Source: an uncultured Candidatus Saccharibacteria bacterium (lineage in GTDB: Bacteria; Patescibacteriota; Dojkabacteria; SC72). From it: 64,000 nucleotides of DNA. Below the pieces are notes generated by a model. That model ran no database searches. It was not told the origin of the DNA and worked only from the letters and a program-made list of their open reading frames with translations. Below, piece by piece: positions 14,359 to 62,334 of this stretch (position 1 is the stretch's first letter; the number at the start of each line of letters is the position of its first letter). A program made the position numbers and the translations under genes. Location: assembly GCA_964621195.1 (NCBI GenBank), contig CAZULJ010000002.1, forward strand, positions 19,665 through 83,664, given 5' to 3'.

Positions 14359-15633
14359 ATGAACAAGTACATTGAGATCTTCCTTAGAATTGTTAAAACA
14401 GAGGAGATTCGAAAAAAAATTATATTCTCACTAGTAATACTTTTAGCATACAGATTGCTAGCTGCGATCCCTGTTGCAGGAATCCCTGCAGATGCTATCA
14501 AATTACTCTTTGAAGGAAGCAACTTCGGAGATCTCCTTTCAACAGTATCTGGTGGTGTACTTGAAACAGCATCCATTGCAGCAATAGGTTTAAGTCCATA
14601 CATCAATGCCTCTATTGTATTCCAACTATTAGGTTCTGTTGTTCCTAAGATTGAAGAGATGAGGAATGAGGGTCCAGAAGGAAGAAGAAAGATAAGTATG
14701 TATACAAGACTCCTTACAGTACCATTTGCAATTATGCAGTCTTTCGTAATATATTCCACTTTACGAGGTTTTGGTTTAATAGGGGAGCTTTCTCCACTAG
14801 AACTTGTAGTTATGGTATCTACCTTGACCGCAGGGTCTGTTGTAGTTATGTGGTTTAGTGAACTGACATCAGAGAGTGGTTTAGGTGGCGGTTCATCATA
14901 TTTGATATTCTTGGGCATTATTGCTGGTATCCCTGGTACTTTAAGATCAAACTTTACTCAATTAGATAGTATTGAGAAGGTAGTGTTCTTGCTAATGACT
15001 TTGGTATTGATAGTATCTGTCGTATATATTACAGAGGCACAAAGGAAGGTAAAAGTTCAGTATTCAAGAAGAGTCAGGGCTGGAGGTTCAATGGATAGCT
15101 ATATACCAATAAAAATTGTGCAATTCGGGGTAATGCCAGTAATCTTTGCCGTATCACTGCTCTCTTTCCCACAATTAATAGGTAAATTCATATTAAGTAG
15201 GGATATGAGTGATCGGGTGATTGAATTTACTACAAAAGCAATGGCACTAATAGATAATCCATATTTCAACAATATAGTTACATTCCTCTTAATAGTAGGT
15301 TTCTCCTTCTTCTATCTTACTGTTGTATTTAAAACTGATGAACTAGCAGAGAACCTACAAAAGCAGGGGGGCTTTATCCCAGGTATTAGGCCAGGAAAGA
15401 ATACCTCTGAGTATCTGCGAAAAGTTGCATTCAGACTAGCATCACTTGGTGCAATCTTCCTAGGATTAATCTCAATTTTACCTTCTGTACTAAATCCATT
15501 ACTCTTCCCAAATGGTAATGTTGTACCAATAATTACAGGAACGGGACTTCTAATTATGGTAAATGTAGTTCTCGATGTTAGAAGACAAGTAGAATCGATG
15601 ATTGTTGTTCGTGATTATGATCGATACCTCTAA
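14359..15633 (+). CDS. secY: preprotein translocase subunit SecY
   Basis: 10-TM profile, GI.PYI.ASI..QLL, plug and hinge regions; operon position after L15. Confidence 0.9.
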   Translation: MNKYIEIFLRIVKTEEIRKKIIFSLVILLAYRLLAAIPVAGIPADAIKLLFEGSNFGDLLSTVSGGVLETASIAAIGLSPYINASIVFQLLGSVVPKIEEMRNEGPEGRRKISMYTRLLTVPFAIMQSFVIYSTLRGFGLIGELSPLELVVMVSTLTAGSVVVMWFSELTSESGLGGGSSYLIFLGIIAGIPGTLRSNFTQLDSIEKVVFLLMTLVLIVSVVYITEAQRKVKVQYSRRVRAGGSMDSYIPIKIVQFGVMPVIFAVSLLSFPQLIGKFILSRDMSDRVIEFTTKAMALIDNPYFNNIVTFLLIVGFSFFYLTVVFKTDELAENLQKQGGFIPGIRPGKNTSEYLRKVAFRLASLGAIFLGLISILPSVLNPLLFPNGNVVPIITGTGLLIMVNVVLDVRRQVESMIVVRDYDRYL

Positions 15634-27034: not shown

Positions 27035-30000
27035 ATGAAAAATACTGCTCTAGTGAGAAAAACAATATGGTTGTTTATTGCCTTGATTGTATCCCTCTTC
27101 TCTTGGGTTTCTCTTGGTCGTGTATTTGCAGCTAACCCTACCCCTGTTCTTGGCTCTGCCGTAGTACTAAATACAGGTAATTACATTTTCTTTACCTCTG
27201 AAATATATGGTGCTAATGTTGTAATCTCAGAACCAGATGCTGGTAATAGCAATATTAGAACTATATCTGGATATGCTTGGTCGCAAGATTTAGGTTGGAT
27301 TAAGTTTTCACAAGGTGAAACTCCTGGAGTATTTGTTGACTACACGACGGGAAATGTTTCCGGCTCTGCCTATGTAATTAATACAGGCAATATATTGGAT
27401 TTCTCAAATTACGGTAGTAATACAGTCGTTGATACTACAACAGGTATATTTTCAGGTTATGTATGGTCGCAAGATATTGGGTGGATAGAGTTTGGAAACA
27501 ATGTCTATGTAGCTGACACTTTGCCACCTACCAATGTTAATACTGTAGCAGGATACACCTCGGATTCAAAAGCGAAAAGTATTACCTCAAGTGAAGTCCT
27601 AGTGTATAACCATACTTTGCCATACTTTGAATGGGAGACTCCAATTGATCCAAGCACACAATCTCATGGTTATCAATCAAGTGGTATTTCTGGATACTAT
27701 GTATATTGGGGACCAAGCTCTACTGCAATACCATCAAGTTCTGGAGTATTCCAAGAGGAAAACTATATAGCACCCTCTGTCTCTGAAAATCAAACTTACT
27801 ATCTTAGAATACAATCAGTTGATAATCACGGGAATATATATACAAATGAAGATCAAGATTACACGTTCTTTGTTTACAAAGCAGACTTACTCAATCCAAC
27901 AAATGTAAAATATATAACTACACCAAGTGGAACATTTAGTAATATAGAGGAGATGTTTTTTAGCTGGCCTAGTGCTGCTAATGTGATCAGTTCTGATGAA
28001 AACGGAATTCTAGGATGGCAGTACAGTCTTAATGGAATAGACAATTGGAAAGGTACACTCACAAGTGAAAGATTTGATTTCGAATACATTCCTTTCGAAG
28101 ATACAACATATATACACTATCTTACTAATGAGAAAGATTCTGCAAATGTAATTATAGGGAACAACATAATCTATTTTAGAAGTATAGATAATGCAGGTAA
28201 TTTCAGTGATTATGTAACAGGAGGGATCTCATACGGAGGTATGGCTCCTCAGTTTCCTACTGAATCAGTAGTGAGTGTATCTCCAGAAACAAATACCTCT
28301 AATGAATTCTCTATAACTTGGCCTAATGCTACTGCACAAGAAGGAAGAACCATACTGCGTTACTACTATATGATTAACACTACACCACCATCGACATACG
28401 AAACTCTCTCTAGTAATAGCTCCCTGTATATCCCAGTAGAAGGCACATCAGTATCTACAAGGATGCTAAGAGGATCTATAAAGGGGGTTAATACAGTATA
28501 CGTTGTTGCGGTTGATAACCAATATGGGTACTCTCAAAGTAATGCGATTACGGGGACATATACTTTGAACAGTACACTGCCAGACCCTATTTTAAACCTT
28601 TCATTGGCAGATACATCTATAAAAAGTGTACAGCTCTGGAGAGCTTCCCTTAACTGGGAAGAACCAGCATATAAAGGAGATGGCGATTTAACATATACAA
28701 TACAAAGAAGCACTGATGGTACGACTTGGGCTACTGTTGGCACTACAAAAGGCCTCTCATATACAGATACTCTACCTGAAAGCAGGCGTTACTATTACCA
28801 GGTAGGAGTCTCAGACTCTACAGATGAAAGTACAAACAATCCTACAATGTCCTCAGTAATTAACTCAATGATACAAGGTCGATATACAGAACCTGCAGAA
28901 ATAGTTTCTAACGTAGTACTTAAAAATATCAGTACAAGACATGCAACAATATATTGGACTACTAACAGAGAATCTGACACCAAAGTTATGTATGGCACCT
29001 CTAGTGGCATGTATTTCAAGGAGGAGGCATATATGTCTGAACAGACCAAAAATCATGAGATAAAGTTGAATAACTTGGAACCAGATACAACATATTACCT
29101 TATTGCAAAATGGACAGATGAAGACGGTAATACTGGTTCTACACAAGAAATATCTTTTAGAACAGACCCAATGCCAAAAGTATTTTCTTCCAAAGTGGAG
29201 AGAGTAGGCCTTGACTATGCAATGGTAACATTCGAGGTGTATGGTGCAACAAAGGCATCTGTTTTGTACGGTAAAAATCTCTCATATACAGATCTAAAAG
29301 AAGTTAATACCTCTGTTACAAGAAGTAAATACTCAGTAATAATCGATGGCTTGCAGGATGGAACAATATATAACTACAAAATACGTTTAACAGATATAGA
29401 AGGATATATTTATGATTCTATAGAAAATCATTCTTTCACAACTCCTCCTAAACCAAATGTTTCAAATGTTCGTATTCAGGAACTAAGGGAAGTTACAAGT
29501 CCTACAGTATTATTTAGTTGGGAATCTAATGCAAAGATAAATTCTATTATCAGATATAGAGAAAATACAGAGGGTTCAGGTGAAATGGATAAAATAGATA
29601 TGGAATATCTCGCAGGTTTACATGAGATGGAAATATCAGGATTAAAATCCGAAACTCAGTACTTAGCATATGTAGAAGGTCTTGATGAGTATGGCAACAA
29701 AGCGATATCAGAACCAATATATTTTACAACTCAAACGGATACTCGTCCTCCAAAGATATTCAATATAAAAGTTGAGGAAGATTTGATGAGTAGAACTGTA
29801 CAAAATGATAGAACCAGAAGTGCACAATTAATACTAACATGGGAAACAGATGAGCCTTCTACAGGTAGGGTCGAATATGGGGAGGGATCCACAGGTATTT
29901 ACTCTTCAAGTTCAAAAATAGACCAAGACTTAAGAACAAAACACTTAGTAATACTTTCTGGTCTTACTCCATCAAAGGTATATAGTTTACAAATAGAATC

Positions 30001-30121
30001 ATCAGATCATTTTGGCAATACGTCAAAATATGGCCCACTAGTATCTGTAACCCCTAAGGCAAGTGCTACAGTTCTTGAAACGGTACTTAATTCAATTTCA
30101 AAAATATTCAGGATATTCTAA
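27035..30121 (+). CDS. giant secreted/surface protein with fibronectin-type-III-like repeats and duplicated SGY(A/V)WSQD(L/I)GWI(K/E)F motifs
   Basis: Signal peptide/TM MKNTALVRKTIWLFIALIVSLFSWVSLGRVFA. Two copies of GYAWSQDLGWIKF / GYVWSQDIGWIEF. Multiple ~100-aa W/Y-containing beta-sandwich-like modules (..TIYWTTNRESDTKVMYG.. and ..VTFEVYGATKASVLYGKN.. are typical FN3/purple-acid-phosphatase-N-like). Confidence 0.6.
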   Translation: MKNTALVRKTIWLFIALIVSLFSWVSLGRVFAANPTPVLGSAVVLNTGNYIFFTSEIYGANVVISEPDAGNSNIRTISGYAWSQDLGWIKFSQGETPGVFVDYTTGNVSGSAYVINTGNILDFSNYGSNTVVDTTTGIFSGYVWSQDIGWIEFGNNVYVADTLPPTNVNTVAGYTSDSKAKSITSSEVLVYNHTLPYFEWETPIDPSTQSHGYQSSGISGYYVYWGPSSTAIPSSSGVFQEENYIAPSVSENQTYYLRIQSVDNHGNIYTNEDQDYTFFVYKADLLNPTNVKYITTPSGTFSNIEEMFFSWPSAANVISSDENGILGWQYSLNGIDNWKGTLTSERFDFEYIPFEDTTYIHYLTNEKDSANVIIGNNIIYFRSIDNAGNFSDYVTGGISYGGMAPQFPTESVVSVSPETNTSNEFSITWPNATAQEGRTILRYYYMINTTPPSTYETLSSNSSLYIPVEGTSVSTRMLRGSIKGVNTVYVVAVDNQYGYSQSNAITGTYTLNSTLPDPILNLSLADTSIKSVQLWRASLNWEEPAYKGDGDLTYTIQRSTDGTTWATVGTTKGLSYTDTLPESRRYYYQVGVSDSTDESTNNPTMSSVINSMIQGRYTEPAEIVSNVVLKNISTRHATIYWTTNRESDTKVMYGTSSGMYFKEEAYMSEQTKNHEIKLNNLEPDTTYYLIAKWTDEDGNTGSTQEISFRTDPMPKVFSSKVERVGLDYAMVTFEVYGATKASVLYGKNLSYTDLKEVNTSVTRSKYSVIIDGLQDGTIYNYKIRLTDIEGYIYDSIENHSFTTPPKPNVSNVRIQELREVTSPTVLFSWESNAKINSIIRYRENTEGSGEMDKIDMEYLAGLHEMEISGLKSETQYLAYVEGLDEYGNKAISEPIYFTTQTDTRPPKIFNIKVEEDLMSRTVQNDRTRSAQLILTWETDEPSTGRVEYGEGSTGIYSSSSKIDQDLRTKHLVILSGLTPSKVYSLQIESSDHFGNTSKYGPLVSVTPKASATVLETVLNSISKIFRIF

Positions 30122-32265
30122 TGAAAAATAGTGAATTAATAGTTATTAAAAATATTAATAAGAGTTTTCCTGTTGGTGATAGGATAAATACAGTATTAAA
30201 AGATATATCTTTTAATATTAACAAAGGAGAGTTAATTACAATATTCGGCCCTTCTGGATGTGGTAAGTCCACACTACTACATATAATAATGGGTATTGAA
30301 AGGCCAGAATCTGGTTGTATAAAAATCTTCGGTATTGACTTATGGAAGATGAATGCAGATGACAGATCTGATATGAGGAAAAGAAACATAGGTGTTGTAT
30401 ACCAACAACAGAATTGGATTAAATCTCTTAGTATAATAGAGAATCTGGCCTTAACCTCCCAGTTACTTGGTTTCAATAAAAAGGACTCTATAAAAAAAGC
30501 AGAAGAAAGTATCTTATTAGTAGGTCTTAATGGATATCGAGATAAATATCCCTCCGAGCTATCTTCCGGTGAACAACAAAAAGCAGGTCTTGCAAGGGCT
30601 ATTATATCTAATCCGCAGGTTATAATAGCCGATGAACCTACGGGAAATCTAGATACAAAGAGTGGATATGATGTTTTAAATATACTGCAAAAGCTTGTGA
30701 GCCAAGGTAAGACAGTTGTTTTGGTTACGCACAATCCAGAATATCTTGAACATTCTGATAGGGTTGTGATTATGAAAGATGGGAATATATTAGATATTGT
30801 AACTAAAACAGGAAACACAAGAGATATTGTTGAAAGAAAACTCTTAGAAGATACGCCAAAACATACTAATGGCAATGATAGTCCTAATATTAAAATAGTT
30901 GAAGAAAATGACTATCCTGAGAGAAGTATCTTTACAAGATTTCAGCAAAATATCTCACTAATAATAAAATTCTTCATAGAATCTACCATTGTATTTATAA
31001 ACATCCTATTACTAAAATTTAATAAAGGAGAGATCCTAGATAGGTATGTAGGTAGTAAAAACAAAAAATTCTCAAAAGAAATAGGAAGCATCTATCTAAC
31101 GGAACTCTCTCTCAAGAATCTCTTCTATAAAAAATTCAGAACAATAATTACAATACTAGGAGTAGGTTTAGGGACTGGATTTGTATTACTTTTGCTTTCA
31201 CTTGGGTATGGCTTGGAAAAGGTAATTCTTGATGAAATAACAGAAGTAAAGGATCTTAAACAATTAGAAGTATTTCCAAAAGTAGGAAGTCTACTAACCC
31301 TTGATCAAGAACTCATAGAGAAAATTAAAAATGTTCCAGGAGTAGAGAAAGTATATAAAGTTAAGAGTATACCTGGCAGAATAAACTATGAAGGCTCAAG
31401 TACTGATGTTGTTTTGTATGGTATTGAAAGTGGCTATTTAGAGGATAGCTCAACAAAAAAAATAGAAGGAGAATATATTATTAAAACTTCCGATAATATG
31501 GATATAATGCTTAATAATGAATACCTGAATGTTCTTGGTCTTAAAAAAGATGAAATTGTTGGTAAGAAAATTGAGCTAGAAGTTGTAAAAACTATACCCT
31601 CAGATGAAACAAAGCAAGAGCCCCTCTCTTTAAAGATTGTAGGAATAGTAGAAGATGATTCCCCCCCAGTGGCATATATGAAAATAGAAGAAGTTATAAA
31701 ATACTCTACACAGGATTACTCACAAGCAACAGTAATTATTAAGGATGATTCTGTAATAGATAATGTCAGAAGGCAAATAGAATCCCTTGGCCTAGAATCC
31801 TTCTCTATCATGGATACAATAACCCAAGTAGAAACACTATTTACATATGTAAGGTATGGATTACTTCTCTTTGGAATAATAGCATTTAGTGTTGCATTTT
31901 TAGGAATGGTAAACACTTTAGTAGTATCACTCCTAGAAAGAACTAGGGAAGTAGGCCTTATGAAAATAGTGGGTATGAAGAAAGATGAGATAATGACAAT
32001 CTTCATTACCGAATCTATGTTCATTGGCTTCCTTGGAGGATTAATAGGTATTGCAGCTGGTTATGTAGGAGGTCTTTTCGTCTCTCTACTTGTATATATA
32101 CTATCGATATCTCGAGGAGTTGATTTTGTTAATATTTCATACATACCTTGCTCTGTTGTTATTCTTGTTGTCGTATGTACTACACTTCTTGGATTCTTTA
32201 CGGGGTTGTATCCTGCTAAAAGAGCAGTAAAGATACCTCCTCTTAATGCTATGAGGTACGAATAA
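30121..32265 (+). CDS. fused ABC transporter ATP-binding protein / FtsX-like permease (MacB/LolCDE-like)
   Basis: Walker A GPSGCGKST, signature LSSGEQQK, Walker B VIIADEPTGNLD; C-terminal 4-TM FtsX-like permease with a large extracytoplasmic loop; start overlaps the upstream stop (TAATG). Confidence 0.8.
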   Translation: MKNSELIVIKNINKSFPVGDRINTVLKDISFNINKGELITIFGPSGCGKSTLLHIIMGIERPESGCIKIFGIDLWKMNADDRSDMRKRNIGVVYQQQNWIKSLSIIENLALTSQLLGFNKKDSIKKAEESILLVGLNGYRDKYPSELSSGEQQKAGLARAIISNPQVIIADEPTGNLDTKSGYDVLNILQKLVSQGKTVVLVTHNPEYLEHSDRVVIMKDGNILDIVTKTGNTRDIVERKLLEDTPKHTNGNDSPNIKIVEENDYPERSIFTRFQQNISLIIKFFIESTIVFINILLLKFNKGEILDRYVGSKNKKFSKEIGSIYLTELSLKNLFYKKFRTIITILGVGLGTGFVLLLLSLGYGLEKVILDEITEVKDLKQLEVFPKVGSLLTLDQELIEKIKNVPGVEKVYKVKSIPGRINYEGSSTDVVLYGIESGYLEDSSTKKIEGEYIIKTSDNMDIMLNNEYLNVLGLKKDEIVGKKIELEVVKTIPSDETKQEPLSLKIVGIVEDDSPPVAYMKIEEVIKYSTQDYSQATVIIKDDSVIDNVRRQIESLGLESFSIMDTITQVETLFTYVRYGLLLFGIIAFSVAFLGMVNTLVVSLLERTREVGLMKIVGMKKDEIMTIFITESMFIGFLGGLIGIAAGYVGGLFVSLLVYILSISRGVDFVNISYIPCSVVILVVVCTTLLGFFTGLYPAKRAVKIPPLNAMRYE

Positions 32266-32282
32266 ATTTTAAATAAATAGTT

Positions 32283-33137
32283 ATGAAATTAACAAGATTA
32301 GAAAAAATTTTAATAGTTTTAATAGTTGGTATATTAGCTAGTACCTTTGTAATAACTAAGGTTCTTGCAGAACAAAGTACTGGTACTCCAAACTCTGAAG
32401 TCAATTCTGTGATCAAGGATGTATACGAGAATCTAGTTAATTTAGAGTATGGATCCGAGACAGGATCTAATGGCCCTATGTGGAACAGAATAATATCTTC
32501 TAGCTTATGGGTACCAGAGGGTACTATTACAGAGGCAGATGTAGTAAATGGTAAAACATTTTTTAATAGTAGTAGAGTAGAAAAAACCGGTACTTTAGAT
32601 TTTCCAAAATACGAAGATATGTCTTTACAAGCAAAAGACTATAGAGATTCAAGTGCCTCTACTACTTGGAGCTCTTGGACCTTGACAAGTGGTGCTGCTA
32701 CAACAGGTGTATACAAAGATAATAGGACGGGGTTATATTGGAGTGCAATGCTGGGTTCTGCAAATTCATTTACAAACGAATTTACAATAGCATCGTGCCC
32801 CTTTTTTACAACGGTACCTAGGGGTGATTATAACGGTGGTAATGTAAATTGTGGTAATGCTATAAATACCTGTGCAACTCTATCCCTTGATTTAAATGGT
32901 GACTCAACTCCAGAAACTAAATGGTACTTACCAACACAAGCAGAACTTATGCAGGCATATTTAAATGGTATAAACTTATCTACCAATACTACATGGGTAA
33001 CAGGGAATAATTTTTGGTCCAGTACCGAGAATCAGTCTACTAATACGTACGCATGGAACGCCTACCTTAACGGTGGCTATACCGCTATCAATAATAAGAT
33101 TACAAGTTATTCAGTTCGTTGTGTCCACAGGGATTGA
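32283..33137 (+). CDS. DGR target (variable) protein: pilin-like N-terminal hydrophobic segment plus C-terminal DUF1566 (Lcl-C / C-type-lectin-fold) domain carrying the VR
   Basis: N-terminus MKLTRLEKILIVLIVGILAS. C-terminus WYLPTQAELMQAYLNG....FWSST..........AWNAYLNGGY.....K.....VRCVHRD matches the DUF1566 pattern (W.LPT..EL..L...YWSS........aw.v.f..G........VRCVR). The last 41 codons are duplicated downstream as the TR. Confidence 0.8.
   Translation: MKLTRLEKILIVLIVGILASTFVITKVLAEQSTGTPNSEVNSVIKDVYENLVNLEYGSETGSNGPMWNRIISSSLWVPEGTITEADVVNGKTFFNSSRVEKTGTLDFPKYEDMSLQAKDYRDSSASTTWSSWTLTSGAATTGVYKDNRTGLYWSAMLGSANSFTNEFTIASCPFFTTVPRGDYNGGNVNCGNAINTCATLSLDLNGDSTPETKWYLPTQAELMQAYLNGINLSTNTTWVTGNNFWSSTENQSTNTYAWNAYLNGGYTAINNKITSYSVRCVHRD
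33012..33133 (+). repeat. DGR variable repeat (VR), 122 bp, at the 3' end of the target CDS
   Basis: 108/122 identity to 33511..33632 with no indels; all 14 mismatches occur at TR adenines. Confidence 0.85.
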
Positions 33138-33510
33138 TAGGAGGGTTCTAGTATAAGTATATAGGGTTGTCCGCCCTGTCTGTAATTGATATCCCATTAA
33201 ACTTGTTTTGCTGAACCCGATTAGCCTAGCAGTGAAAATGTAGAACACAGTCTTAAATCTATAGGTCTCTAGGTCGCTGAACTCTTGGAGAGTATAATAT
33301 CTGCTAGGCAATTTAAATATTGAAATGTCTATTTTGATATGTGATTATGACTTATGCAGGATCTTACATTCTCAACCTTGTTTTAGGCTCTGGTTTGTAA
33401 GGGGGGCGTAATATATAATCCTACTTGCTATACCCATTGGGTACTAAGATTCAAAAAGTCTTTTTATAAAATCAGACTTTTGGTGAGTAATATAAATTAG
33501 CAAGTTTCCG

Positions 33511-33632
33511 TTTTGGTCCAGTACCGAGAATCAGAATAATAATACGAACGCATGGAACACAAACCTTAACAATGGAAATACCAATAACAATAATAAGATT
33601 ACAAGTTATTCAGTTCGTTGTGTCCACAGGGA
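33511..33632 (+). repeat. DGR template repeat (TR), 122 bp, Asn-codon (AAY)-rich
   Basis: Non-coding copy of the VR. In target frame it reads FWSSTENQNNNTNAWNTNLNNGNTNNNNKITSYSVRCVHR; VR differs only where the TR has A. Confidence 0.85.
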
Positions 33633-33641
33633 GAATATATT

Positions 33642-33992
33642 ATGCCTCATGCAAGTAATACTTTATATTTAACACTATATAAATTTATACAGTATTTGTA
33701 TTGTGTTGTTCGCAATTTCCCCAAAGAGTACAAATATACACTTGGTGCAGATATTTTAAATCTCTCTTGGAAATCTCTTGATTATATTATTGTCGCTAAT
33801 TCGGTTAGTAACAAGGAGAAGAAAAAATATCTTGAAAAGGCAGTAGCTGTGTTTCTTAGTCTTAAATATAGATTAAGGCTCTCTAGTGATTTAAAACTGT
33901 TTAACAATAAGAGGTATGCGTATGTTCTAGAAAACTATCTTGAAATAGAAAAAATATTAAACGGTTGGCTTGCTTGGTCTAAAAGACAGTAG
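33642..33992 (+). CDS. avd: DGR accessory variability determinant (Avd; four-helix-bundle / 23S-rRNA-IVS protein family)
   Basis: ~116 aa; FPKEYKYTLGADILNLSWKSL..I..ANS......K.YLEKA......L.Y.LRLS.DLK resembles Avd / S23 ribosomal-IVS proteins (FPKeEkygLtsQi.Raa.Si.sNIaEG); start taken at the MPHASN ATG just after the TR. Confidence 0.7.
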   Translation: MPHASNTLYLTLYKFIQYLYCVVRNFPKEYKYTLGADILNLSWKSLDYIIVANSVSNKEKKKYLEKAVAVFLSLKYRLRLSSDLKLFNNKRYAYVLENYLEIEKILNGWLAWSKRQ

Positions 33993-35162
33993 ATTATTCT
34001 GAGGTTCGATATATTCTTTCAGTTTACCAAAGTGTTTGTTGTAGAGGTTGTTTCTTAGTAGGTAAGAATTACTCCATTTCAAGTGTCCAAATGTAGAATT
34101 AATGCTTGTACAAAGAGCCTTAATATCTTTTTGAGTGATATTTTCCCCTAGAGGTATTCTTTCTTCCATACAGAGCTTTCTGTTTATTAGGTATCCTTTG
34201 TTAAAGTAGTATAGCTTTCTTTCTAAATTTGCTAAAACCCTGTTTCTACACAGTGTGAATCTTGGTTTAACTATGTATCCCACAAAGTCTATTCCTTGGT
34301 ATACACTTCCATATTTTGTTTTGTTGCTCTTGATTTTTAATCTAAGCCTTTTTTGTAGGAATAACTCTACCTTTCTTTTGATAATTTCTAAGGTATCTAT
34401 ATCTTCTGAGAGAAATAGCATATCGTCGGCGTATCTCAGATAGTATTTTACCTCTAGTTTCCTTTTAATATATTGATCTACTTCATTTAGATATAGATTT
34501 GCGAAGAATTGCGAGGTTAAGTTACCAATCGCAAGTCCTTTACCTTTCGGTATTGTGAACAGGCTTTTATTCTTTGGAAGGCTACCTATTATTTTGAAAC
34601 TGCCTTTCTTTTTATAATTACTACATGGGTCATGGAATATAATTTTTGAGATTAGCCATATCAAATCTGCCTTGTCTTTTTTGTTGAAATTAAGGCGGTT
34701 TATTTCCTTTTTGAGAATTCTATAAAGTATTTCCTTGTCTATTGAATAAAAAAAGCTCTCAATATCGAGTTTAAGATAGTACGCCTGTTTGGTATTGTTA
34801 TGAGTAATTTTTTTTATAAACCGTTTCAATCTCCTTATGCCCAGGAGAGCTCCTTTGTTTTTTCTACAAGCAAGAGAGTCGTATATAAATTTTTTGTCAA
34901 TAGGTCTTTCAATATGATTAATAAGCAGGTGGTGTACAATCCTGTCTCTAAAACTTGCCGCAAAGATCTCTCTTGTAGTGGGATAGGTAATTACAAAGCA
35001 CTGAGACTTACCTATTGTATACCTTCTGTTAAGAAGTTCTTCATGGAGAATGTAAAGATTGTTTTCAAGAGATTCTTCAAACTCAGAAGCATATTTGCAA
35101 TTTCTTTTTCCTTTTCTGCATGCAGAGTATGCTTGAAGAAGTGATGATAGTTCAAAAACCAT
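33957..35162 (-). CDS. DGR-type reverse transcriptase
   Basis: RT domains with YADDMLF (motif 5) and IGNLTSQFFANLYLN (motif 4 with SQ, as in DGR RTs, instead of the QG of group II intron/retron RTs). 401 aa. Adjacent to TR and avd but on the opposite strand, overlapping the avd 3' end by 36 bp. Confidence 0.8.
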   Translation of the reverse strand: MVFELSSLLQAYSACRKGKRNCKYASEFEESLENNLYILHEELLNRRYTIGKSQCFVITYPTTREIFAASFRDRIVHHLLINHIERPIDKKFIYDSLACRKNKGALLGIRRLKRFIKKITHNNTKQAYYLKLDIESFFYSIDKEILYRILKKEINRLNFNKKDKADLIWLISKIIFHDPCSNYKKKGSFKIIGSLPKNKSLFTIPKGKGLAIGNLTSQFFANLYLNEVDQYIKRKLEVKYYLRYADDMLFLSEDIDTLEIIKRKVELFLQKRLRLKIKSNKTKYGSVYQGIDFVGYIVKPRFTLCRNRVLANLERKLYYFNKGYLINRKLCMEERIPLGENITQKDIKALCTSINSTFGHLKWSNSYLLRNNLYNKHFGKLKEYIEPQNNLLSFRPSKPTV

Positions 35163-35623
35163 ATCGCGATATATTATATAAATGGTATAGAGTAAGTATC
35201 TTGGGCCTAATAATACTTGGGAACCTATGCAAAATTATAGTGAATCTGCAATTCTTAACTATGAAGATCTTAACAGTTCAAGATTGTTACATCTGATATG
35301 AAGAGTTTTTAAAAGACATACAGATATATTACAGGAAAAAGTTGAAATAAACTCTTCCCGATTGTTGTTAACTATGTTGATTTGTATATTAGGGGCAATA
35401 GCTAGAAAGTAAGCTCTAAAAATGATATCATTACAAAGTCCTTGATAACCATGTTTTGTGGTTGGTAAAGAAATATTAAAGAATAATTGATTAATGAACA
35501 TTTTGAAAAATATATATACTAAAAAATATATACTACAAGAACTCTTTGATGTAGGAGATCGTAATTAGATCTTCCTATTTTTCTTCACCAAAAAAGGATG
35601 AATAAATTTTTAACAATACTCTT

Positions 35624-37144
35624 ATGGAGTTAATTATTGGTATTGTTGCAACACTCGTCGGAGGTATTTCTGTGTTTTCCTACCTCAAGTATGTACAGAA
35701 GTGGGTAAATATTAAGGATATTCCCGAGGAAGAAGTAGAGAGAGTTGCAAACAAGATAATCGGTAACAAGATAGCACAAACCGAGAAAGAATTAGAAGAA
35801 AACAAAAGAAGGGCAGAAGATAGACTCCGCGAACTTCGAAAAGAAACTCAGGAGCATGAGGAACTTCTTCTTGATAGGGAGAAGAAATTAAATGAGAGAA
35901 CTAAGATGCTCGATCAAAAAAGTGAAGAACTCGAGAGTGCTTCTGAGAATGTAAAGAAAATGCAAAGAGGTCTTGAAAATACAAGGAATCAATTGAAAGA
36001 AGAATTGGAAAGGATTTCAGGATTAACTCAGGATGAAGCAAGACAGAAACTTATGAGTCAGGTTGATGAGGATATCAAAAACTATGAAGCTAAGAAAATT
36101 AGGCAGGCAGAGAAAAGAGTAGAAGAAGTAGCAGAGGAGAAGGCAAGGCATATTCTTGTTGAATCTATGCAAAGAATTGCAACTGACTATGTAGGTGAAA
36201 CTACTACGTCTTCTATTAAAATTGAAGATGATAAAGTAAAGGGTAGAGTTATTGGTAAAGAGGGTAGAAATATCAGGGCATTTGAAAAGCTTACCGGTGT
36301 TGACGTTATTGTCGATGAATCTCCAAATACAATAGCTCTTTCATCTTTTGATCCTTTGAGAAGAGAGATTGCTTCTGTTGCACTTACCAAATTGATTGGT
36401 GATGGAAGAATTCATCCAGGATCTATCGAAGAGGCTATTAGAAAGGCAAAGAATGAGATTTCAATTGAAATAAAAAAGAATGGTCAAATTCTTGCAGAAG
36501 AAGCTGATTGGCCAGGTATAGATATCGGATTGTTAAAGCTTATTGGTAAGATGAAATATAGAACTAGTTATGGGCAGTCCTTAATGTCTCACACTATCGA
36601 AATGATGAGAATGGGAGAAGTTCTAGCTGCAGAAGTTGGAGCTGATGTAGGTCTTGTTAAAAAGGCATGTCTATTACATGATGTTGGTAAGGTATTAACT
36701 CATAAGATTGAGAGTCCTCATCATCATATTTCTGGTCAGGTTGCTCGTAAATATGGTTTAGATGAGAAATTGGTGAATGCAATTGAAGCTCATCACTTGG
36801 ATATTGAACCACAATCTGTTGAAGCTGTATTGGTATATATTGCGGATGCAATCTCTGGTGCAAGACCAGGTGCAAGAAAAGATAGCTATGAACAGTATAT
36901 TCAAAGGATTGAATCTTTAGAGAATGTTGCAAAGGAATTGGCTGGAGATAAGATTGAAGAGGTGTTTGCTATTAAGGCTGGTAGAGAATTAAGAATAATT
37001 GTTAAACCTGCTTTGATATCTGACGATGAAATGACTGTACTTGCAAAGGATATCGCGTCTAGTATTGAGAAGACTCAGAATTATCCTGGTAATGTAGAAG
37101 TTACATTAATCAGAGAAACTAGAGCTATTGAGGTCGCAAGATAG
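35624..37144 (+). CDS. rny: ribonuclease Y
   Basis: N-terminal TM, coiled coil, KH domain (GRVIGKEGRNIRAFE..TGVD), HD domain (HSIEVA-like ...LLHDVGK...HH). Confidence 0.85.
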   Translation: MELIIGIVATLVGGISVFSYLKYVQKWVNIKDIPEEEVERVANKIIGNKIAQTEKELEENKRRAEDRLRELRKETQEHEELLLDREKKLNERTKMLDQKSEELESASENVKKMQRGLENTRNQLKEELERISGLTQDEARQKLMSQVDEDIKNYEAKKIRQAEKRVEEVAEEKARHILVESMQRIATDYVGETTTSSIKIEDDKVKGRVIGKEGRNIRAFEKLTGVDVIVDESPNTIALSSFDPLRREIASVALTKLIGDGRIHPGSIEEAIRKAKNEISIEIKKNGQILAEEADWPGIDIGLLKLIGKMKYRTSYGQSLMSHTIEMMRMGEVLAAEVGADVGLVKKACLLHDVGKVLTHKIESPHHHISGQVARKYGLDEKLVNAIEAHHLDIEPQSVEAVLVYIADAISGARPGARKDSYEQYIQRIESLENVAKELAGDKIEEVFAIKAGRELRIIVKPALISDDEMTVLAKDIASSIEKTQNYPGNVEVTLIRETRAIEVAR

Positions 37145-37191
37145 GTAACTTCTAGTAGTCATTACTACAGGGCAATGATTAGAGTTATTAA

Positions 37192-37220
37192 AAGGGAGGA
37201 AAATAAATCCTCCCTTTTTG
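37192..37220 (+). terminator. rho-independent terminator after rny
   Basis: GGGAGGA-AAATAAA-TCCTCCC hairpin followed by TTTTTG. Confidence 0.65.
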
Positions 37221-37588
37221 TTCTTTCAGAAAGGCTTTTGATCAAATATTGTCCTAGAAAAATAGGGGGAGTTGAAAACGTTAGAATATATTGTAGACAT
37301 CCAAAAACGCTGGTAGAAAAGCTTTTTCTGGTAGTTTGCTCATGAAACCTTGTGATATCAATATGAATTGCTTCACGGAGTTAATATCTTATTCACAAAT
37401 ATTACCCAATCTTGAGGGGGAAACTCTTGACAGTAAAAGCTTTTTAGTAGCTACGGATGAAAAATCCTATAACAATAAGGTTCTTGATGTGACCCTTTAT
37501 TTACGCTATTTTAATCATGTGGTAGCACGAATCGGATGATATCAGGATTCGTGGCACCCGTATCTCTAAGAAAGGAGGTTTTAAACAC

Positions 37589-54821: not shown

Positions 54822-55856
54822 TTGAAGATGAAATATAGACATATTTTTTACATAATACTGATTGTATCCTCTGGCTTACTACTATCTGGTTGTACCAAAA
54901 AGGATCCAGCCTATGATACCTCCAAGATAGATATTGTTGATTCAGAAGAGAAAGAAGAGGTCGAGAACCAAGAAGAAGAGGTTGATGAGTTACCCGTCGA
55001 TTCTACAGATCTAGGATCGCTATCTAATCCTGAAGAATTTACAAGAAAGAGTCAAAGTATTGGTGCAATCTCAGAATCGGAATACACTCTTGAGTCTTTA
55101 GAAGCTACTCAAGCTAATGGATATCACGATTTTAAGTTTAGAATTTCAACTGCATCTGAGACTCCAGTCTTGCCACTTTTCACAGTCGATCCTGTGTTAG
55201 ATAAGGGGGTATTTAGGGTAACAGTAAAAAATGTAGTAACTGATAACAGTGGTATTGCATATCAAACCAGCAAATTGGTAGAGAAGGGCGCTATCACTGG
55301 AATATATAGGGCGGTTACATCACAACCAAAAACTTCTGTATATGAGATTGGGTTTTTAGGTATAAATAACGTAAAGCTCGACTATCTAGAGAATGATCTA
55401 AATAGTTGGGATGTATCTGTAAAGGTTTCATACGATCTTAAATATTCTCCTCCAAGTATAGATTTCGGTAGTACTGAGTTCAGTAGCGATGCACAAAGTA
55501 TTGAAGGTATGACATCTTCGGATGGAGCGAGGGTATCCTCATACTCATACAGTGTTACAGGTGGTGTCTTAAAATTTGTATTTTCTGTTGCTAGTGGTGC
55601 ATCTAACCCTATTCCCTCTGTAGAGGCAGCTTACGATGATATGAATATCTTGGATGTTAGATTTACATCTTTGCTTTCAGATAAAGTATCTACTTGGGGT
55701 AATACAATTACTCTCCCTGGAGGTATTGTTGTTAATGTATCGAGGATTGGTGAGGTTAGTAGTTACAAATTTGGAGGTATTGGTGCTGCAAGGGCTTTTA
55801 AGCTAAGTGCGACTCAGAGTCCTAATCAAGTAATAGTTGAGATTAAATTGAATTAA
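54822..55856 (+). CDS. lipoprotein, hypothetical (acidic linker then beta-rich domain)
   Basis: Signal with LLSGC lipobox; EEKEEVENQEEEVDE acidic linker. Confidence 0.45.
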   Translation: MKMKYRHIFYIILIVSSGLLLSGCTKKDPAYDTSKIDIVDSEEKEEVENQEEEVDELPVDSTDLGSLSNPEEFTRKSQSIGAISESEYTLESLEATQANGYHDFKFRISTASETPVLPLFTVDPVLDKGVFRVTVKNVVTDNSGIAYQTSKLVEKGAITGIYRAVTSQPKTSVYEIGFLGINNVKLDYLENDLNSWDVSVKVSYDLKYSPPSIDFGSTEFSSDAQSIEGMTSSDGARVSSYSYSVTGGVLKFVFSVASGASNPIPSVEAAYDDMNILDVRFTSLLSDKVSTWGNTITLPGGIVVNVSRIGEVSSYKFGGIGAARAFKLSATQSPNQVIVEIKLN

Positions 55857-60455: not shown

Positions 60456-61721
60456 GTGAATATTCATAATATTGTTCTAACAACCTCTCTTGTAATTTCA
60501 GGAATTGCAATCTTCAGATACTTTGTGTATCTGATTTTTGCACCTTTGTATGAATTCCAAAGAATTTTGATATTAAAAAGCTCAAAGAAGAAATCAAAAA
60601 AACAGATTGAGAAATCTATGAAGATATCTGTAATAGTTCCTGCATGGAATGAGGAAGTTGGTATTTCAACATCAATATCTTCGCTATTGGAGAGTAGCTA
60701 TAATAACTTGGAGATAGTTGTTGTAAATGATGGGTCTACAGATTCAACAAATCGCATAATTCGAAGTTATTTGAGGAAGAAGAATGTAGAGGGCAAGAAT
60801 CTAAAAGGCAAAAGTATCGTATATATAAATAAGAGAAAGAATGCAGGGAAGGGAGCTGCTCTAAACTCTGGTATAAAACGTAGTTCTGGGGATATTATTG
60901 TAACAATGGATGCAGATACTAAGTTTGAAAACGATGCATTATACAATGTTGCACGATATTTTCAGAATAAGGATATAGATTGTGGAGTTGGCAACGTAAA
61001 AGTTTCAAATACTAAGAGTCTATTGGGATTAATTCAGCAAATTGAATATACATTTGGTTTTTACTTTAAAAGGATGCACTCAGTTCTTAATTGTGAATAC
61101 ATAATTGGGGGAGCCTTTGGTGTTTATAGGAGGAATATTTTCGATAATTACGGTTACTTTGATGAGAAAAACAAGACTGAAGATATTGAGTTCTCGACAA
61201 GATTGAGCTCATATGGCTTGAAGTGCTTTTTCATGGAGGATGCGATTGCTTATACAGAGGGTGCCTCGAGTCTAGATGGCTTGTTAAAGCAAAGGACAAG
61301 ATGGAAGCGAGGGAGGATTGATACCTTCCTGCGATACCTTAATCTCTTTTTTAGTCTTGAGAAGAGACACAGCAAGGTTCTCTCATGGTTTGTTCTTCCA
61401 TTGGCTCTTGTTGGAGATTTTGAACTTCTTTTGTTTCCTATACTTTTTCCATTGATCATGTTCTATACCTTTGATTTTGGTAGCTTCAATTACTGGATTT
61501 CGTGGATAATATTTTTCTCATTTGTTGTTCTATTATCTTATCTCTTTGGCTCTAAGAGGAATGCTTTGCAAAGCATTCTGTTAATACCGGTCTTTTATTT
61601 TCTTGCCTTTATACTTGTTTTTACTGAAATCTATGCCATGTTGAAGTCAATATCCTTGCTTATTAAAGGTAAGGATATTGTTTGGCAAAGGTGGGAGAGA
61701 AAGGGGGTGGAAAATGTATAG
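60456..61721 (+). CDS. processive family-2 glycosyltransferase (PgaC/IcaA/cellulose-synthase-like, QxxRW)
   Basis: ISVIVPAWNEE (DXD region), VVVNDGSTD, TMDADT, QRTRWKRG (QxxRW); N-terminal TM and C-terminal TM bundle. Confidence 0.75.
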   Translation: MNIHNIVLTTSLVISGIAIFRYFVYLIFAPLYEFQRILILKSSKKKSKKQIEKSMKISVIVPAWNEEVGISTSISSLLESSYNNLEIVVVNDGSTDSTNRIIRSYLRKKNVEGKNLKGKSIVYINKRKNAGKGAALNSGIKRSSGDIIVTMDADTKFENDALYNVARYFQNKDIDCGVGNVKVSNTKSLLGLIQQIEYTFGFYFKRMHSVLNCEYIIGGAFGVYRRNIFDNYGYFDEKNKTEDIEFSTRLSSYGLKCFFMEDAIAYTEGASSLDGLLKQRTRWKRGRIDTFLRYLNLFFSLEKRHSKVLSWFVLPLALVGDFELLLFPILFPLIMFYTFDFGSFNYWISWIIFFSFVVLLSYLFGSKRNALQSILLIPVFYFLAFILVFTEIYAMLKSISLLIKGKDIVWQRWERKGVENV

Positions 61722-62334
61722 AAGTATATTAAAAATTTCGATACTATTACTTTTCTTCGTTGGATTCGGTTATCTATCGTCTAGAGTTGTTTCTTATGTG
61801 GAAAGTAATATTCGTCTATGGGAAAGGATTGAGGCGTATGTAAACAGTAGGGAGGGAGTCATCGAAGAGGAGTTAATTCTTGTTAGTGTCGAGGAGAAAG
61901 TTGAAATAGAGGAGGATAATGTGAATTTGGGGGTACCAGTAAGTATAAGGATTGAGAGTGTAGGTATCGATTTGGAGGTAAAAGAGGGTATCTACGATTA
62001 CGAGGAAAGGGTTTGGACAATAACAAATGGCTATGCATATTGGGCAAATCTCTCAGACTCAATATTTCAGAAAAATTCTAATACCGTAATATATGCTCAT
62101 AATCAGAAGAACGAGTTTGGGAAATTAAAAAATATTAATATAGGAGATAAGATTGTTGTAACTACAGACTCTGGGAATACCCTTGTGTTTGAATATTTCT
62201 CCGATAATATTGTAGATCCAAATAACTCCTCTGTAATTTTCGAAGAAGTTGATGTTTCTAGACTCGTCCTTATTACTTGTAATGGTGTGTTTAGTGAGGA
62301 TCGTAGGATTTTGTATGCACGATTAGTTGATTAA
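61714..62334 (+). CDS. sortase-family transpeptidase
   Basis: N-terminal TM, catalytic His (VIYAHN), LITCNG Cys motif, downstream Arg (RRILYARL); start set at MYRSILK (8-bp overlap with the GT2 stop). Confidence 0.65.
   Translation: MYRSILKISILLLFFVGFGYLSSRVVSYVESNIRLWERIEAYVNSREGVIEEELILVSVEEKVEIEEDNVNLGVPVSIRIESVGIDLEVKEGIYDYEERVWTITNGYAYWANLSDSIFQKNSNTVIYAHNQKNEFGKLKNINIGDKIVVTTDSGNTLVFEYFSDNIVDPNNSSVIFEEVDVSRLVLITCNGVFSEDRRILYARLVD

Follow-up and report, generated by a model that had tools for sequence, protein, structure and literature searches.

Exported lectins of the DUF1566 type that are varied by a DGR have been known since the description of LdtA in Legionella pneumophila, and they have since been catalogued in large surveys. 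In the DGR set of Wu et al. (2018), targets with a DUF1566/CLec2 domain constitute 'category d' and account for 14% of the set, with the Legionella protein LdtA as an example (PMC5758913). The VR of LdtA is located at the C-terminus of a DUF1566-type domain with the C-type lectin fold, and this exported protein is diversified through adenine mutagenesis by a cassette comprising avd, TR and RT. LdtA is a lipoprotein that resides in the outer membrane's outer leaflet. The related C-terminal domain of Legionella Lcl (PDB 8q4e; PF07603) belongs to a collagen-like adhesin on which no DGR acts. Treponema denticola TvpA (PDB 2y3c) is a lipoprotein as well, with the FGE-sulfatase subtype of the fold. 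In Bacteroides, the type V pilus tip adhesins provide a case in which a DGR varies the adhesive tip of a pilus (10.1101/2024.11.15.621889). In the CPR, DGR targets were reported by Roux et al. to be usually devoid of a recognisable transmembrane segment or conserved domain (PMC8144416).

The locus described in this work is found in a 64-kb stretch of DNA, called here the window, for which an earlier note had proposed a DGR-diversified tip carried by a pilus-like or membrane-anchored stalk; the concept of a pilus tip varied by a DGR exists in Bacteroides. The present analysis leads to a different conclusion. The target of this DGR is not a pilin; it is a Sec-exported DUF1566 lectin of an already known class, and very probably functions as an exported binding protein built from a Sec-type signal, a DUF1566 lectin domain and a variable tip that is rewritten by the DGR. 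It resembles LdtA by the position of the VR, by its export and by the cassette that diversifies it. Unlike LdtA, it has no lipobox and no Cys in its signal, it contains an extra N-terminal subdomain of roughly 100 aa, its RT is antisense to the TR, and its host belongs to the CPR, whose members appear to lack a Gram-negative envelope (PMC6744442). It differs from Lcl by a domain that carries the VR and by another N-terminal part, and from TvpA by its sequence family. The Bacteroides adhesins involve another type of pilus in another phylum, and no evidence links the present target to any pilus.

The target gene and its DGR cassette

The gene of the target protein was defined from the ORF list and the sequence:

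32283..33137, + strand: gene of the DGR target (variable protein), 284 aa and a stop codon

The ORF, its N-terminus and its C-terminal motifs are exactly as the earlier note gave them. The translation begins with MKLTRLEKILIVLIVGILAS, and this N-terminus cannot be longer because an in-frame TAA (32274-32276) lies two codons 5' of the start. The C-terminal motifs are located at aa 214-222 (WYLPTQAEL), 244-249 (FWSSTE), 257-258 (AW) and 278-281 (VRCV). The protein is identical to the NCBI protein P0230, encoded on a contig of 158,534 bp, and has 120 full-length homologues, mostly 265-330 aa long. Its nearest relatives come from Candidatus Dojkabacteria and other Patescibacteria MAGs. The surrounding window is chromosomal and of housekeeping nature, with a ribosomal protein operon, secY and genes for RNase Y-like and HU-like proteins.

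The elements of the DGR follow one another over the end of the target gene and the region immediately downstream:

33012..33133, + strand: variable repeat (VR), encoding aa 244-284; 122 nt, 89% identical to the TR
33111..33133, + strand: invariant 3' end of the VR (IMH-like), TCAGTTCGTTGTGTCCACAGGGA; 23 nt, the same as the end of the TR
33511..33632, + strand (shared with the VR): template repeat (TR), 122 nt, with 14 AAY codons in the VR frame
33642..33992, + strand: accessory gene avd, 116 aa counted from its ATG at 33642; Pfam bAvd, 64.7 bits
33957..35162, - strand: DGR reverse transcriptase (RT), 401 aa; Pfam RVT_1, 71.4 bits

The window contains a single VR and a single TR. The two repeats differ by 14 mismatches, which affect aa 252-269 and are all located at an adenine of the TR. 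Given that adenines represent 49 of the 122 nt of the TR (40%), the probability of such a 14/14 coincidence is ~0.4^14, or roughly 3e-6. With avd and RT adjacent to this pair of repeats, the status of DGR target attributed to the protein by the earlier note is borne out. The 23-nt end TCAGTTCGTTGTGTCCACAGGGA occurs in exactly two copies in the window, at the ends of VR and TR, where none would be expected by chance, and in a relative (L001; 89% DNA identity, same layout) the last A-substitution is found at repeat index 97 (0-based; 33109 in window coordinates). DNA folding revealed no significant hairpin 3' of the VR (fold z-score 0.0); a GC-rich inverted repeat is present in only about a third (34%) of DGRs (PMC5758913).

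The longest ORF compatible with avd begins at a TTG (33618) within the TR, while the gene called in L001 corresponds to the start at 33642. Its product scores 66 bits against the NCBIfam model DivGenRetAVD, which is under the 80-bit cut-off of that model. The RT gene overlaps the end of avd by 36 nt with its own 3' end, on the strand opposite to that of TR, VR and avd. The motifs IGNLTSQ and YADD can be read in its translation, and its top match in the PDB is 8ub7_A (E 6e-32), a chain of 328 aa that was deposited under the name 'Reverse transcriptase' and that we take to be the Bordetella phage DGR RT; the other RT chains listed, group II intron and retron RTs included, match at 7e-9 or weaker. 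An Rfam search of positions 31000-37500 (E<=1) returned nothing but a chance miRNA match, and a scan for promoters and terminators gave no more sites than in shuffled sequence.

Among relatives, the same A-biased TR lies beside the target gene in 23 of 23 related loci. In all 23 loci the RT is antisense to the TR, an arrangement unlike that of the DGR models studied so far.

The natural variation of the target was followed in nine sequences: the protein of the window itself and the eight that share its 90% cluster, among which one is identical to it. Eight distinct VRs are present among the nine. These sequences vary at 47 positions, 21 of which fall in aa 250-276, and all 21 are on codons containing a TR adenine. 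A second cluster follows the same pattern. In L001, the VR differs from its own TR by 14 other mismatches, again restricted to adenines. This DGR is thus real and evidently active.

Domain architecture of the target

Downstream of the signal region, which is treated below, three parts can be distinguished in the protein:

32370..32408, + strand: conserved linker EQSTGTPNSEVNS, aa 30-42; family consensus EQSGSSPESGxTS
32409..32708, + strand: N-terminal alpha/beta subdomain, aa 43-142; pLDDT 86-95
32709..33134, + strand: DUF1566/Lcl_C domain with the C-type lectin fold, aa 143-284

The assignment of the C-terminal part to DUF1566, put forward in the earlier note with an HMM search as the means of checking it, is confirmed by Pfam Lcl_C/DUF1566 (PF07603), which matches aa 143-281 above its gathering threshold (49.6 bits for a cut-off of 34.9; E 6e-13). 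The C-type lectin fold, which structure prediction was to verify, is recovered as well: the AF2 model, with a pLDDT of 91.4 when built on an alignment of 93 sequences (34.6 for AlphaFold on the single sequence), is similar to solved CTLD and Lcl_C structures, and Foldseek and a PDB profile search agree on this fold. In the model, the variable positions are carried by a loop and a beta-hairpin with strands 256-261 and 266-271. They are interleaved with a near-invariant scaffold (W245, S246, S247, E249, A257, W258, G265, K272, V278, R279 and C280) and accept in nature residues as different as Gly, His, Leu, Asn, Asp or Val. Such a tolerance at the same site is hard to reconcile with a burial of the variable residues. 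Secondary structure, conservation and natural variability all fit a predicted exposure of the VR residues to the solvent. The protein contains four cysteines (C172, C190, C197 and C280), three of which are at least 90% conserved; their pairing as disulfides would fit an extracytoplasmic protein.

No Pfam family matched aa 1-142. The N-terminal subdomain contains one unit of the type 'DV.xGKTF...KTGT', which is found repeated in tail-fibre-like proteins. A search with aa 30-142 among 1.84 billion representatives yielded 111 relatives, some of which match the unit in 4-7 stretches. In most representatives of this N-terminal-subdomain family, the linker motif directly follows the signal peptide. 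E30, P36 and S42 of the linker are at least 90% conserved, and the pLDDT is 57-62 over residues 21-40. For a linker, the EQSGSSPESG segment is conserved to an unusually high degree.

Conserved neighbours of the target gene

Two genes located upstream, outside of the DGR proper, are encoded on the same strand as the target:

27035..30121, + strand: FN3-repeat secreted protein, 1028 aa; Pfam fn3 and Pur_ac_phosph_N
30121..32265, + strand: MacB-type fused ABC transporter; Pfam ABC_tran, MacB_PCD and FtsX

The start of the MacB-type gene overlaps the stop of the FN3 gene, and its end is 18 nt before the target. The genes of the FN3 protein and of the MacB-type transporter are translationally coupled. 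Of 15 well-flanked loci, 11 have an FN3 homologue at a distance of about 4 kb or less from the target, and nine contain a MacB-type homologue. The pair adjoins the target in most of the well-flanked loci and stays in place even where the DGR has decayed.

A tentative and rather improbable proposal is that the DGR lectin is part of a conserved CPR surface module with these two proteins. In such a module, the holding, release or presentation of the lectin might fall to the transporter or to the FN3 protein, and the EQSGSSPESG segment could serve as a docking element; alternatively, the MacB-type protein could act as a mechanotransmission machine extracting a lectin that is anchored by its signal. 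If this proposal were true, it would represent a mechanism of retention or display that is not described for DGR targets.

Export of the target and alternative readings

The N-terminal region displays the organization of a signal for the Sec pathway:

32283..32369, + strand: Sec-type signal peptide, aa 1-29; predicted cleavage, or end of a signal anchor, before E30

A basic n-region, MKLTRLEK (K2, R5, K8), is followed by an uncharged core, I9-T25, and by the c-region V27-L28-A29, after which the sequence continues with E30-Q31. The uncharged run covers 17 aa, for a family median of 20. A hydrophobic core followed by (V, T, A or I)-x-(A or G)/E-(Q or K), where the slash marks the point of cleavage, is present in 108 of the 120 full-length homologues, with a median signal of 29 aa. 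As the search pattern itself already specified the -1 residue, only position -3 constitutes an independent check, and V, T, A or I is found there in 103 of the 108. Another 105 representatives of the N-terminal subdomain show, for the most part, the same signal and junction, and those with a complete N-terminus possess nearly always a classical signal peptide ending in ...A/EQSGSSPESG. The extracytoplasmic location presumed by the earlier note is upheld, a Sec-type signal peptide fitting this part of the sequence. Sequence rules and family conservation designate signal peptidase I as the most likely enzyme, with a cut after V27-L28-A29. Cleavage before E30 would generate the mature N-terminus and, as a semi-tryptic peptide, EQSTGTPNSEVNSVIK.

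The earlier note had instead read this N-terminus as aligning closely to class III signal peptides. A type-IV-pilin-like signal cut after MK would then make the DGR lectin a pilin, major or minor, displayed on a pilus. The idea was reasonable a priori, because PilD and type IV pili are common among the CPR (PMC6744442). DGR-varied pilus tips are known, and the rare DGR targets that have been listed include a pilin domain of the GspG type in which a VR is found (PMC11661182). The target shares indeed with type IV pilins a short basic N-terminus, a Glu in front of a hydrophobic helix and a stretch ...IVGILA... similar to pilin alpha-1N, and 43 of the 120 homologues, all in the close subclade, keep the start MK(K)LxxLE ahead of a hydrophobic stretch. 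This unusual start is unexplained by a plain signal-peptide model. Glu7 is arithmetically at +5 if the cut is made after K2, as had been claimed, but cleavage at this position is unsupported; distant homologues lack this Glu entirely, and a Glu immediately preceding the hydrophobic core is not distinctive, because 6 of 91 unrelated proteins with an N-terminal TM in these loci have one too. Class III signals have a Gly (rarely an Ala) at -1, and the basic leader in front of the cut comprises about 5 residues or more. Strom and Lory are said to have established in 1991 that this Gly is the one residue that prepilin peptidases essentially require. In MK/LTRLE, it is replaced by Lys, as the earlier note had correctly remarked, and the leader would be reduced to 2 residues, with an Arg at +3. 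The close alignment itself did not materialize: neither Pfam N_methyl (PF07963) nor the NCBIfam pilin motif (TIGR02532) matched the whole protein at E<=1 or its first 45 aa at E<=10, and the N-terminus still obtained no N_methyl score when G or GF was engineered at -1/+1, whereas in the same Pfam scan the N-terminus of P. aeruginosa PilA scored 44.7 bits and a CPR pilin from locus L037 scored 28.4 bits. None of about 225 family members possesses the class III motif G[FILMV]xxxE, the single regex match being the cleavage region GATLA/E. The structural prediction is also unfavourable to a pilin. The alpha-1 helix of pilins is roughly 50 residues long and its C-terminal half packs on the globular domain; the helix of the target, in the AF2 model, is limited to the 19 residues 5-23, gives way to a Pro/Gly-rich coil of low confidence and, unlike that of pilins, is followed by a conserved site of the signal peptidase I type. 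The search for pilus genes recommended in the earlier note revealed neither type IV pilus genes nor a gene for a prepilin peptidase in the 64-kb window, and no type IV pilus gene next to the target homologues; in ~800 kb comprising the window and the homologue loci, one pilin-like ORF was encountered, about 9 kb from the target of its locus and on the other strand. The target is most improbable as a pilin.

An exported lectin could nevertheless be retained at the cell by its own signal. If left uncleaved, this segment would act as a signal anchor and tether the lectin to the cytoplasmic membrane by a flexible linker of roughly 19 residues, and the 'membrane-anchored stalk' that the earlier note offered as a fallback would possibly hold. 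The 19-residue helix of the model and the uncharged run of 17 aa, of borderline length for a membrane span as judged with the family median of 20, are compatible with this proposal. So is the fact that a cleaved form would have no obvious means of cell retention, with no lipobox, LPXTG or C-terminal TM segment, and most cellular DGR targets bear an N-terminal TM segment or a signal peptide, together with a binding domain (PMC8144416). On the other side, the -3/-1 rule is obeyed in nearly all homologues and the Glu at +1 is at least 90% conserved, a pattern most easily explained as a site of cleavage; in addition, short classical signal peptides such as MKKIILFLSCFIFGIFSIFQVANVFA/EK occur in many distant homologues. 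A signal anchor is for these reasons possible but somewhat unlikely. A phage origin is much harder to defend. It would imply that the cassette is borne by a phage or prophage and that the protein is a phage receptor-binding protein instead of a cellular surface protein, as might be suggested by the top fold matches in BFVD, which are phage DUF1566, Peptidase_S74 and tail-fibre proteins, and by the repeat unit that the N-terminal subdomain shares with tail-fibre-like proteins. However, the locus is set amid the housekeeping genes listed above, the FN3-MacB synteny is kept across many Patescibacteria MAGs, no phage-related Pfam family was detected among the ORFs scanned in part of the window, and the target bears a signal peptide, a feature usually absent from virion proteins. 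This origin is accordingly given very little credit, and a prophage is rejected on the housekeeping context.

Two other modes of attachment to the cell were considered and rejected for the target. It is not a lipoprotein, having no lipobox and no Cys in aa 1-171; lipobox proteins starting with ...LSGC are encoded elsewhere in the window, at 700-2130 and 54822-55856. It is not a sortase substrate, since it has no LPXTG and no C-terminal anchor; the window does encode a sortase.

Proposed mechanism and significance

For the exported, DGR-diversified lectin, the following scheme can be proposed. Residues 1-29 would direct export by the Sec system, whose gene secY is present in the window, and the mature protein would open with the conserved flexible segment EQSxGxPxS. 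Roughly its last 30 residues (aa 250-276, that is the beta-hairpin and the loop preceding it) would be rewritten by the adjacent DGR. The TR would be transcribed from the + strand, then copied into cDNA by Avd and the RT, the product of the - strand gene, with misincorporation opposite adenines; the cDNA would subsequently replace the VR under the guidance of the invariant 3' end. The direction and the mechanism of this retrohoming are proposed by homology to the Bordetella phage BPP-1. In theory, the 14 AAY codons of the TR would permit a repertoire of up to about 10^24 protein variants without stops arising at these codons.

Had a DGR varied the tip of a type IV pilus in an episymbiotic CPR bacterium, this would have been a striking means of attachment, but the evidence says otherwise. 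Specialists of DGRs and of the CPR could take an interest in the uniformly antisense orientation of the RT with respect to the TR, as well as in the conservation of the FN3 and MacB-type neighbours. More generally, the existence of a family centred on Dojkabacteria that combines a signal peptide with a CLec domain indicates that at least one DGR lineage of the CPR employs the standard design of the exported variable binder. The likely outcome would be a variable binding of ligands on or near the surface of a host-dependent CPR bacterium, for which host or partner cells, glycans and phage are the candidate ligands.

Organization of the DGR locus

In all of the related loci compared (23/23), the reverse transcriptase (RT) gene of the diversity-generating retroelement (DGR) is carried by the strand opposite to the target gene, its variable repeat (VR) and the A-biased template repeat (TR). 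This set comprises the locus in the window (TR to RT gene, 33511-35162) and loci L001, L005-L008, L010-L012, L014, L016, L017, L020, L021, L023-L027, L030, L032, L035 and L038. The features concerned in the window are the following:

27035-30121 (+), FN3 protein gene
30121-32265 (+), MacB-type ABC transporter gene
32283-33137 (+), DGR target gene, 284 aa
33012-33133 (+), VR
33511-33632 (+), TR
33642-33992 (+), accessory gene avd
33957-35162 (-), RT gene

Since the RT gene is antisense to the TR, transcription of the TR RNA must be independent of that of the RT. The orientation of avd varies with the lineage: in the Dojkabacteria-like subclade it lies on the TR strand and is convergent with the RT gene, the two overlapping by 36 nt in the window, and in other subclades it shares the strand of the RT gene. 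Any "spacer" RNA located 3' of the TR would overlap with the coding region of avd. The architecture designated B3 by Wu et al. is TR-(avd)-RT (PMC5758913).

Neighbouring genes

Of 15 loci whose flanks extend 6 kb or more in each direction, 11 encode a secreted FN3-repeat protein of about 1030 aa next to the DGR target, and 9 encode a MacB-type fused ABC transporter there. The two genes, which share one base between the FN3 stop and the MacB start, occupy positions 27035-32265 in the window and are also found in L002-L004, L008-L012, L023, L024 and others. They lie upstream of the target in some loci and downstream of the RT gene in others. The FN3-MacB-target trio is kept in L002-L004 even though avd is cut to 57 aa and the RT gene is lost.

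Over about 1.2 kb (31500-32700), from the 3' end of the MacB gene through the first two-thirds of the target, the window and its relative L001 are 99.5-100% identical, whereas identity in the flanking sequence is just 77-92%. Such a pattern suggests that this tract recombined recently or that an assembly is chimeric.

The target protein and its family

Directly past the predicted cleavage site, residues 30-42 of the target (32370-32408) follow the family consensus EQSGSSPESGxTS, in which E30, P36 and S42 show a conservation of 90% or more among distant Patescibacteria. The structure model renders this segment as a low-confidence coil in spite of a conservation that, at the sequence level, exceeds that of a plain linker. 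Further on, within the N-terminal subdomain, the unit DV.xGKTF...(R/K)..KTGT occurs as a single copy (residues about 79-105, window about 32520-32600). The search with this subdomain matched the unit in 4-7 stretches in other proteins, several of which have no signal peptide and a tail-fibre-like appearance.

The window also encodes two proteins with a lipobox-like ...LSGC start (700-2130 and 54822-55856), a sortase-domain protein (61678-62334) and SecY (14359-15633); the organism therefore has several surface-anchoring routes. As far as can be read from its sequence, the DGR target makes no recognisable use of any of them.

In some genomes, two to four target-family paralogues are arranged in tandem beside one DGR cassette or none (L010, 9121-13798; L018, L022, L044 and L045). 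These paralogues may represent extra or former DGR targets.
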